Notes: a model not told the origin generated them from the letters alone. A stretch of 64,000 nt of DNA from a virus (IMGVR_UViG_3300048583_000366:3655-67654), one strand, 5' to 3'. Shown: positions 13,011-13,288, numbered from the stretch's first letter. Numbers and translations are program-made.

Positions 13011-13030
13011 TTCCGTCTTTCCGGAATGTC
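13011..13030 (-). other. Leader hairpin GACA-TTCCG-GAAAGA-CGGAA
   Basis: 5-bp stem ending 3 nt before the 5' end of tRNA-like RNA 1; covaries with the copy at 13268-13288. Confidence 0.65.
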
Positions 13031-13143
13031 GGTATTTTTTACGCTTCCTTCAGTTATTTCTTAACCGAGTTCGACCCGTAGCGTATAGGTTTGGCAACCT
13101 TGGTGCAGCTTTGCCAACACTTCTAATGCTGCACTTGGTACGG

Positions 13144-13264
13144 TGGATGAGAGAGGACTCGAACCTCTACGTGCTGCCAGGTATTATGGCCCCTCAAATA
13201 TGAGGTTTTTTACACTCGTAATATCTACCATTACGATACGTCTTCCAATTTTCGTCACTCATCC
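13144..13264 (-). ncRNA. Expanded tRNA-like RNA 2 (121 nt; Leu-like D arm; 69-nt centre)
   Basis: Acceptor GGATGAG/CTCATCC-A, D arm ACGAAAATTGGAAGACGT, T arm AGAGG-TTCGAGT-CCTCT. Confidence 0.72.
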
Positions 13265-13267
13265 TGT

Positions 13268-13288
13268 TTGGGTCTCTCCCCAACTGTC
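13268..13288 (-). other. Leader hairpin GACAG-TTGGG-GAGAGA-CCCAA
   Basis: 5-bp stem ending 3 nt before the 5' end of tRNA-like RNA 2. Confidence 0.65.

Follow-up and report, generated by a model that had tools for sequence, protein, structure and literature searches.

Two hairpins ahead of tRNA-like RNAs in a viral contig represent a widespread phage RNA module

We examined two hairpins that repeat at an interval of 257 nucleotides (nt) on the minus strand of a 64,000-nt stretch of viral DNA (hereafter "the window", positions 3655-67654 of the 67.6 kb IMG/VR virus record IMGVR_UViG_3300048583_000366, completeness estimate 39%), each of which stands just ahead of a tRNA-like RNA. The hairpins are local copies of a widespread 26-nt phage RNA module in which U-GACA leads into a 5-bp stem that covaries and whose sequence is free; the stem carries the hexaloop GARAGA, closed by a G-C pair, and its return strand is followed by A. 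The module is a sequence-specific one of the RNA level and the sense strand, and is tied to the 5' edge of the unit downstream of it; it is not the end of a spacer non-coding RNA, not a terminator, and not a member of any Rfam family. Neither Rfam 15 nor the literature searched yielded a description of the motif, which we class among the short, presumably cis-acting RNA hairpin signals of phages. It stands out by an unusually broad distribution, over phages and prophages of many bacterial phyla, and by an unexplained link to abnormal tRNA-like genes.

The two hairpins of the window

The positions given below are those of the window, and the scores are for the motif model, R2.
13011..13031, minus strand: hairpin 1, C-GACA, stem UUCCG/CGGAA, loop GAAAGA; present in the minimum free energy (MFE) and centroid folds; 29.8 bits.
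13267..13289, minus strand: hairpin 2, U-GACA-G, stem UUGGG/CCCAA, loop GAGAGA, then A; 14.5 bits.

Read along the minus strand, hairpin 1 is composed of GACA (13030-13027), UUCCG (13026-13022), GAAAGA (13021-13016) and CGGAA (13015-13011), followed by the linker GGA (13010-13008) and by the first tRNA-like RNA, RNA1, from 13007. Hairpin 2 is composed of GACAG (13288-13284), UUGGG (13283-13279), GAGAGA (13278-13273) and CCCAA (13272-13268), followed by the linker ACA (13267-13265) and by RNA2 from 13264. Both fit the definition of the motif, i.e., GACA directly 5' of a stem of at least 4 bp with a G-C closing pair and a GARAGA loop; hairpin 1 departs from it by a C in place of U before GACA and a G in place of A past the stem, and hairpin 2 by one added G after GACA, which accounts for its low R2 score. 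The original prediction, made from the window sequence, had described these hairpins with two compensatory pair swaps, conserved loops and GACA, and 3-nt linkers, and the description proved accurate as written. The inner variable pairs are C-G and C-G in hairpin 1 versus G-C and G-C in hairpin 2 (two double compensatory changes), the loops agree at five of six positions, and the combined pattern occurred twice in the window versus 0 times in 100 dinucleotide shuffles. Hairpins with a GARAGA loop and a stem of at least 5 bp numbered four in the window against a shuffle mean of 0.9, and 3 of 200 shuffles reached four. Pair probabilities for hairpin 1 were 0.78-0.99 in the precursor context; hairpin 2 was present in the MFE folds of 13144-13292 and 13144-13386 and was outcompeted in one truncated context.

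No minus-strand terminator-like site was detected at either hairpin, where the bases past the stem are GGAGGA and ACAGGA, and Rfam gave no match to them at E ≤ 10 within 12500-14000, known self-cleaving ribozymes included. The earlier suggestion that the hairpins might form the 3' end of a larger non-coding RNA or ribozyme in the spacer was not borne out: the two spacers show no relation to each other except the hairpin, no flank was conserved in 104 other instances of the motif, and no ribozyme family was matched.
13265..13386, minus strand: spacer A, 122 nt, from a tRNA-Met gene to RNA2, with hairpin 2 at its end; fold z-score -0.23.
13008..13143, minus strand: spacer B, 136 nt, from RNA2 to RNA1, with hairpin 1 at its end; fold z-score -1.88.

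Among 24 sequencing runs, no RNA run containing the region was listed. DNA contigs of close relatives from three runs/studies (X1, X2, X4), 95-97% identical over the region, were compared with the window. GACA and both loops were invariant. The 5' strand of hairpin 1 carried three changes (+13023, +13025, +13026), of which one converted a C-G to a U-G pair and two broke the outer U-A pairs. The X1 and X2 contigs stop at 13015, so that the 3' strand of hairpin 1 lies outside them; the X4 contig (depth 2) is the sole one spanning hairpin 1, and there the 3' strand was unchanged and the outer two pairs were lost (predicted pair probabilities ≤0.12). The outermost pair of hairpin 2 was also lost (+13268). 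These losses argue against strict maintenance of the outer pairs in the window lineage.

The motif in viral and bacterial sequences

IMG/VR was scanned with two patterns. The first (GACA, a gap of 4-5 nt, GGARAGAC, six free bases, AGGA) returned at least 117 matches at 115 or more loci, and among the 117 matches listed 32 had three or four more contiguous stem pairs, versus about 6 expected. The second, GACANNCCGGARAGACGG, left the downstream sequence unconstrained and returned at least 121 matches at 117 or more loci; both free outer positions paired in 113 of the 121 matches listed, versus about 17 expected (~14% by chance). The viral loci recovered ranged in G+C content from 0.31 to 0.69. 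Covariation was assessed in 21 distinct copies, pre-selected for at least four pairs: double changes were found in four of the five pairs, giving 30 such cells versus 9.6 in shuffles, a value reached by 0 of 500 shuffles. The same copies were 87.6% paired in register versus 22-43% in slid registers, the percentage being true by construction because of the pre-selection.

A logo drawn from 104 distinct copies had U before GACA in 85 and A past the stem in 76. The loop was 6 nt in all 104, and its sole variable position was the third, A in 80 copies and G in 24. Upstream, the logo was flat from -25 to -2, with conservation limited to the U at -1 and GACA, and the remaining flanks were flat as well. 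An outer helix around GACA as a "bulge" was considered and rejected, since pairing there was at the base-composition expectation; a sigma-70 promoter was likewise rejected for want of a -10 signal in the logo. G-U pairs occurred in the sense orientation. Strong copies numbered one or two per genome in the five records scored with R2, and no Rfam 15 family was found at any motif copy examined (E ≤ 1 in 11 motif-bearing loci).

In prokaryote genomes, scanned with each species represented once, at least 120 matches were obtained; among those listed, 61 were fully paired versus about 17 expected. The complete motif was present in 23 of 80 named loci, spanning at least 10 bacterial phyla; among these 23 are Paraburkholderia, Aggregatibacter, Stenotrophomonas, Xenorhabdus, Planctomycetota, Cyanobacteria, Verrucomicrobiota, Spirochaetota, Clostridia, Armatimonadota, Sumerlaeota, Saccharibacteria and one Thermoplasmatales metagenome-assembled genome. 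Among isolate phages, blastn located the motif in those of Bacteroides, Erwinia, Ralstonia and Bacillus. In Bacteroides phage BS-TP2 a stop codon directly precedes the copy, and 4 nt separate the hairpin from a 108-nt tRNA-Leu-like RNA, after which comes NinG. In Erwinia phage phiEt88, a Q-like antiterminator gene, then a terminator-like hairpin and a small open reading frame (ORF), stand ahead of the copy, and ~300 nt of non-coding sequence and tRNA-Phe come after it. Ralstonia phage GP4 has two copies, ahead of an HNH gene and of the small terminase gene. In Bacillus phage 035JT001 the motif (1501-1521) falls within an unannotated stretch of 1.1 kb (1230-2356) that follows the capsid protease gene; this stretch has a sigma-A-like promoter, a terminator-like end and no Rfam match, and may be a large non-coding RNA.

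Genomic placement of the motif

No open frame of 200 or more amino acids covered 74 of 92 copies on either strand. Long flanking ORFs were co-oriented with the motif in 41 cases and opposed in 15, and the tRNAs called by ARAGORN within 300 nt of a motif lay on the same strand in 17 cases and on the opposite strand in none. Because of these two biases and of the sense-orientation G-U pairs, we place the module at the RNA level and on the sense strand. The median distance from the upstream stop codon to the hairpin was 145 nt, versus 57 nt from the hairpin to the next start codon (mode 15-32 nt). This asymmetry, the copies that stand just before tRNAs, and the conservation within the window, which begins at GACA, tie the module to the unit downstream.

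The search originally proposed, a pattern scan across phages with distance to tRNA 5' ends as the measure, was run with a positive outcome: copies were found repeatedly 1-8 nt before the 5' ends of tRNAs or tRNA-like RNAs. Four ARAGORN-called tRNAs begin 3-8 nt past the stem (loci L253, L245, L226 and L185; that of L253 is tRNA-Asn), a copy in L156 lies 3 nt before tRNA-Met, and long tRNA-like genes left uncalled by ARAGORN begin 1-4 nt past the stem in L193, L217, L199, L235 and, twice, in L267. Copies from the first scan directly preceded tRNA or tRNA-like genes in L070, L078, L104, L144, L160, L156 and L133. Two copies each were present in L070 and G007, 3-4 nt before a tRNA or tRNA-like gene, the second copy not having been selected by the pattern. 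In a complete 88.5-kb provirus (loci L070 9962-10140 and L162 421-480, both minus strand), the motif stands before a 74-nt tRNA whose anticodon loop apparently has 8 nt (ARAGORN "tRNA-???") and also before a mini tRNA-like RNA of ~62 nt, with a group II intron nearby.

At genes of family phrog_13908, which have no Pfam match, the motif abuts the Shine-Dalgarno sequence, often as two or three tandem copies, and sits after a terminator-like hairpin. Other downstream genes include a YqaJ recombinase (L073) and PAAR (L145). Among 74-79 flanking ORFs, upstream ones were most often helix-turn-helix repressors or regulators (Cro-type) and CII-like, and downstream ones helicase, DNA polymerase, single-stranded DNA-binding (SSB)/annealing proteins and NinG; these are small counts of 2-4 each. 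A terminator-like site was present within 300 nt downstream of 8 of 102 copies versus 4.0% at random positions, a weak excess. A crude blastp comparison of partial genomes, of low sensitivity, gave no protein family common to three or more motif-bearing lineages. A search for T7-type RNA polymerase (PF00940) gave no match in eight records; the control genomes were likewise blank, which makes this search uninformative. In L083, two tandem hairpin-like repeats with loops GAUAGA and GACAGA were seen ~45 nt upstream of the motif, in an apparent coding repeat that ends the upstream ORF.

The tRNA-like RNAs and the composite unit

12886..13007, minus strand: RNA1, 122 nt, tRNA-like; Rfam tRNA score 31.8 bits versus a threshold of 29.
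13144..13264, minus strand: RNA2, 121 nt, RNA1 paralogue, from an ARAGORN intron option and alignment to RNA1.

In both RNAs the acceptor stem has 7 bp, and a D arm (of tRNA-Leu type in RNA1), a T arm and a discriminator A are present; a canonical anticodon arm or loop was seen in neither. RNA1 has ~35 extra nt where the normal anticodon/variable region would be. RNA2, whose acceptor and T arm are close to those of a phage tRNA-Leu(UAG) (L035), contains a hairpin with a 7-bp stem and the loop GGUAGAU, plus two more hairpins. Their 5' ends, and with them the 3-nt spacing, were placed by acceptor-stem pairing and are not mapped RNA ends. RNA2 gave no match to the Rfam tRNA family (RF00005), ARAGORN in its default mode called neither RNA, and no transfer-messenger RNA was detected. 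Because their match to true phage tRNA-Leu genes (L026, L032, L034, L035) takes in the D arm, a CGAGUG segment, the acceptor stem and the T arm, we read RNA1 and RNA2 as putative tRNA-Leu-derived, tRNA-like RNAs. Spliced tRNAs were considered (the ARAGORN intron mode offered tRNA-Met and tRNA-Val with "introns" of 26-28 nt) and rejected, as the anticodon stems were poor and the positions differed between the paralogues.

RNA1 and RNA2 were identical in 71 of 127 aligned columns. The similarity runs from GACA to the discriminator base, outside of which only 8 of 40 positions upstream of GACA and 11 of 40 downstream agreed. The two units are paralogues, so that their co-location reflects common descent rather than two independent events.

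Model R1, which was built from the two window units alone, matched units elsewhere over the full length of the model: L217 (68.5 bits), L199 (64.1), Bacteroides phage BS-TP2 (59.8), L193 (59.8), G007 (58.9), L274 (45.7) and L267 twice (41.2 and 39.6). The succession of hairpin, 3-4 nt and tRNA-Leu-like RNA is therefore a recurrent cassette, mostly of Bacteroidota-type phages. The long tRNA-like RNAs (~104 to 155 nt) have normal acceptor, D and T arms and, in the place of the anticodon arm, an insert that varies in length between units; the motif hairpin stands before each, and none was called by ARAGORN. Examples are as follows.
L267 13137-13567, minus strand: long tRNA-like gene(s), a motif hairpin before each.
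L162 (G007) 517-699, minus strand: long tRNA-like gene(s), motif hairpin before.
L296 (BS-TP2) 1527-1634, plus strand: long tRNA-like gene, motif hairpin before.
L217 4423-4528, plus strand: long tRNA-like gene, motif hairpin before.

Other searches for the RNA bodies were negative. The alignment obtained by blastn of the RNA cluster against 50,697 phage records was confined to the tRNA-Met part, and five relatives found via an upstream protein (L003-L007) had no copy of the unit (R1 matched 0 of 5 records). Pattern scans anchored on the RNA body returned odd tRNAs or other tRNA-Leu-like RNAs without the hairpin, and one of them returned none; a metagenome scan of this kind gave nine loci, comprising two true tRNA-Leu genes and seven coding or chance matches, and a further scan gave one chance match. 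In Flavobacterium phage immuto (L045), an annotated 86-nt "tRNA-Cys" at 3247-3332 has an apparent 8-bp acceptor stem and a weak R1 match (20.4 bits), and GAAAGAC occurs ~21 nt upstream of it with no good stem.

Surroundings of the RNA cluster

The window codes for a family A DNA polymerase, ribonucleotide reductase, GroEL, thymidylate synthase and tail sheath. Because its polymerase shares 53% identity with the one from Flavobacterium phage immuto, the host of the phage probably belongs to the Bacteroidota. The genes around the RNA cluster are all on the minus strand, in the order tRNA-Met (13461-13387), 122-nt spacer, RNA2 (13264-13144), 136-nt spacer, RNA1 (13007-12886), and the start codon of the next ORF is 15 nt past the end of RNA1. 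The stretch between the window ORFs, 13582-12871, is untranslated, and no minus-strand terminator was detected there.
13387..13461, minus strand: ordinary tRNA-Met(CAU), which heads the small RNA cluster without a motif hairpin before it.

Several other structures were observed. Spacer B contains, at 13091-13134 (minus strand), two interleaved perfect 7-bp helices (13134-13128/13109-13103 and 13117-13111/13097-13091) that could form an H-type pseudoknot; the variants in the relatives (one break, one G-U, one loop change) are not decisive. On the plus strand, 13192-13205 is the reverse complement of an internal hairpin of RNA2 together with a T run, a terminator-like site for plus-strand (antisense) transcription. 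A third GAAAGA-loop hairpin, with a 9-bp stem (G-U pairs included), lies at 12589-12612 (minus strand), ~275 nt downstream of RNA1 and within the 5' part of ORF 12373-12651, which codes for a zinc-ribbon-like protein (CxxC...CxxC); the hairpin lacks a GACA flank, its closing pair is A-U, and its chance expectation was estimated at ~0.02 per window. Model R2 also matched 14228-14249, inside an ORF, by sequence alone and with no stem. A group I intron (Rfam, 82.8 bits) lies at 15941-16156 (minus strand), ~2.5 kb upstream of the RNA cluster.

Discussion

The reading that we prefer, though tentatively and at something short of an even chance, is that the hairpin serves RNA processing and stability as a sequence-specific boundary signal. 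It is ranked first because of the fixed short distance to tRNA-like 5' ends and ribosome-binding sites, the downstream asymmetry, and the fact that each tRNA-like gene has its own copy. In the window, the 5' leaders of the two presumed tRNA-Leu-derived RNAs would each end in the hairpin, which takes up their final 20 nt. A conserved factor might recognize the invariant single-stranded UGACA together with the loop, the transcript would be cut at or beside the module, and the hairpin would cap, and possibly protect, the RNA end. RNase P cleaves at tRNA-like 5' ends, and such a cut 3 nt downstream of the hairpin would leave it as the 3'-terminal structure of the upstream fragment; where the hairpin abuts a ribosome-binding site it would instead sit near the 5' end of the downstream mRNA. 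Hairpins at RNA ends are obstacles to 3' exonucleases and to decay that depends on the 5' end. The original prediction had suggested a protein-binding or processing signal: this is the right class for what proved to be a strongly conserved, covarying, sense-strand module with an invariant loop and flanks.

Two known arrangements resemble such a boundary signal. In MALAT1/mascRNA and in tRNA punctuation, a structure directly upstream of a tRNA-like element is left at the new 3' end by 5' cleavage; in MALAT1, however, the structure is a eukaryotic triple helix, whereas here it is a 5-bp hairpin with a 3-nt tail and a cleavage that is presumed. The extra-stable UUCG-type intercistronic hairpins of T4 and the repetitive extragenic palindromic (REP) elements of bacteria are likewise short conserved intercistronic hairpins tied to mRNA stability, but what defines them is the thermodynamics of the loop or a mobilising transposase, in contrast to the motif with its invariant single-stranded flanks and only one to three copies per genome.

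Several points weigh against a boundary signal. About 80% of copies are not beside a tRNA, and for many the next ORF lies over 100 nt away. The flanking genes point to early, regulatory and replication modules, where nut and put sites also sit. In the X4 relative, hairpin 1 is down to three pairs with no visible compensating change, and the predicted hairpin is lost. A hairpin that begins at -4 is expected to hinder binding of the leader by the RNase P protein, and we know of no nuclease of such specificity common to all these hosts. Finally, a plain stability hairpin does not explain the invariance of the loop, the G-C closing pair and UGACA over G+C contents of 0.31-0.69 and at least 10 phyla.

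The main rival, ranked second and in our estimate unlikely, assigns the hairpin to processive antitermination, as a signal of the nut/boxB or put type: while still nascent, the hairpin by itself, or helped by Nus factors and a small phage protein that evolves fast, would modify RNA polymerase to pass terminators and resist Rho across untranslated stretches, of which tRNA arrays and the gaps between cistrons are examples. The likeness to the boxB hairpin of lambdoid phages noted in the original prediction extends to shape and setting, i.e., a 5-bp covarying stem, a purine-rich and probably GNRA-like loop, an A past the stem, one to three copies per genome, and an intergenic, sense-strand position in operons. 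It falls short of showing membership in the nut family. The loop has 6 nt versus 5 in boxB; the invariant UGACA is directly at the stem and not, as boxA is, several nt upstream, and no conserved boxA-like element was found; boxB differs among lambdoid phages whereas the motif is invariant over many phyla; and the motif is often 1-8 nt from tRNA 5' ends, with no N-like protein or gene identified. HK022 put RNA would share with the motif a cis-acting role as nascent RNA, about two copies per genome, placement in early operons and independence of a phage protein, but put is a two-stem RNA of ~65-70 nt versus 26 nt and one stem. Antitermination would suit the Cro/repressor and CII-like genes upstream and the helicase, DNA polymerase, SSB/annealing and NinG genes downstream, as well as the phiEt88 copy, which follows a Q-like antiterminator gene and a terminator-like hairpin and precedes the non-coding RNA and tRNA. 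It would also suit the long untranslated stretch of the window with no minus-strand terminator detected, and a direct action on RNA polymerase would explain both the absence of a shared phage protein and the cross-phylum invariance. It needs neither the 257-nt repeat in the window nor the fixed 3-4 nt to the tRNA-like 5' ends, however; in the phrog_13908 contexts the motif comes after the terminator-like hairpin rather than before it, and the downstream excess of terminators is slight.

Why UGACA and the loop do not vary from phylum to phylum is explained by neither the boundary nor the antitermination reading, and this invariance points to a partner which is itself universal. It is possible, if still rather doubtful, that the hairpin acts without a phage protein on a universal host machine, either RNA polymerase, as a minimal put-like antiterminator, or the tRNA-processing apparatus; it would then be a portable signal for the "start of an RNA unit", used for example to launch the long tRNA-Leu-like RNAs.

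Retention of the hairpin in a mature small RNA, i.e., a stable 5'-extended tRNA-like RNA of ~146 nt comparable to T4 species 1 RNA (rnaC), we consider improbable. It would account for the conservation between the paralogous units, which starts exactly at GACA, and for a hairpin from -4 that should hinder RNase P. The T4 gene order is also alike, with a tRNA gene (tRNA-Arg) followed on the same strand by two stable tRNA-like RNAs of ~120-140 nt, rnaD and rnaC (119 and 139 nt, among which rnaC has ~45 nt before its tRNA-like domain). The T4 RNAs, however, have no sequence similarity to those of the window (at the T4 locus model R1 matched only tRNA-Leu, with 22.1 bits, and a T-arm fragment of 7.6 bits); they are 1-6 nt apart without this hairpin, and the window RNAs are, by sequence, clearly tRNA-Leu-derived. 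A role in the mature RNA would also leave aside the ~80% of copies with no tRNA-like RNA beside them, and the ordinary tRNAs that are preceded by the motif (tRNA-Met in L156, tRNA-Asn in L253) need 5' maturation to function.

An element acting at the DNA level, such as a replication or priming signal (a primase/origin signal) or a promoter of the N4 hairpin type, is more improbable still. A stem followed after a few nt by the first base of the RNA has the geometry of a hairpin promoter, copies are often beside helicase, polymerase and SSB genes, and UGACA supplies five of the six -35 consensus bases; but sense-orientation G-U pairs and the strict strand linkage to tRNAs (17 versus 0) belong to RNA, the logo has no -10-like conservation at the expected distance, and 5-bp stems are unlikely to extrude from duplex DNA. 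Least probable by our estimate is that the loop shows a Glu codon (GAA/GAG, then A) to the anticodon loop of tRNA-Glu or serves as a Shine-Dalgarno-like ribosome standby site, thus acting via a component of translation, a suggestion from sequence in which the sole variable loop position, at the third base of GAR (80 A versus 24 G), would distinguish two synonymous codons, the loop and the G that closes it spell the Shine-Dalgarno-like GGAG or GGAA, and tandem copies adjoin true Shine-Dalgarno sequences, but which leaves the invariant GA at the loop end and UGACA unexplained, offers no obvious role before tRNA genes, and suits poorly the Bacteroidota, which use little Shine-Dalgarno pairing.

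Full-text searches of the literature gave no account of the motif, a result that does not extend to the individual entries among the 8,495 csRNAs of the IMG/VR catalogue of Fremin et al. (2023, PMC10690425), where the hairpin may be listed. That catalogue describes motifs ahead of GP20 and GP32 as well as some tRNA-like RNAs. Rfam GP20-a and GP20-b, together with the csRNAs found before phage genes, resemble the present motif as conserved structures that stand immediately ahead of phage structural genes in IMG/VR contigs; they differ in that cmscan at E ≤ 1 gave neither at the hairpins, and the downstream gene here is phrog_13908.

That the motif is common to phages of Bacteroidota, Bacillota, Planctomycetota, Spirochaetota and Saccharibacteria hosts implies a shared, so far unnamed interaction with a conserved host process, for which transcription elongation, RNA processing and RNA decay are the candidates. 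As the motif is small, readily mutated and present in culturable phages (BS-TP2, phiEt88, GP4 and 035JT001), its function is directly testable. It also flags a family of abnormal long RNAs, apparently tRNA-Leu-like, in Bacteroidota phages, and these may bear on the old question of the role of the T4 species 1 and 2 RNAs.

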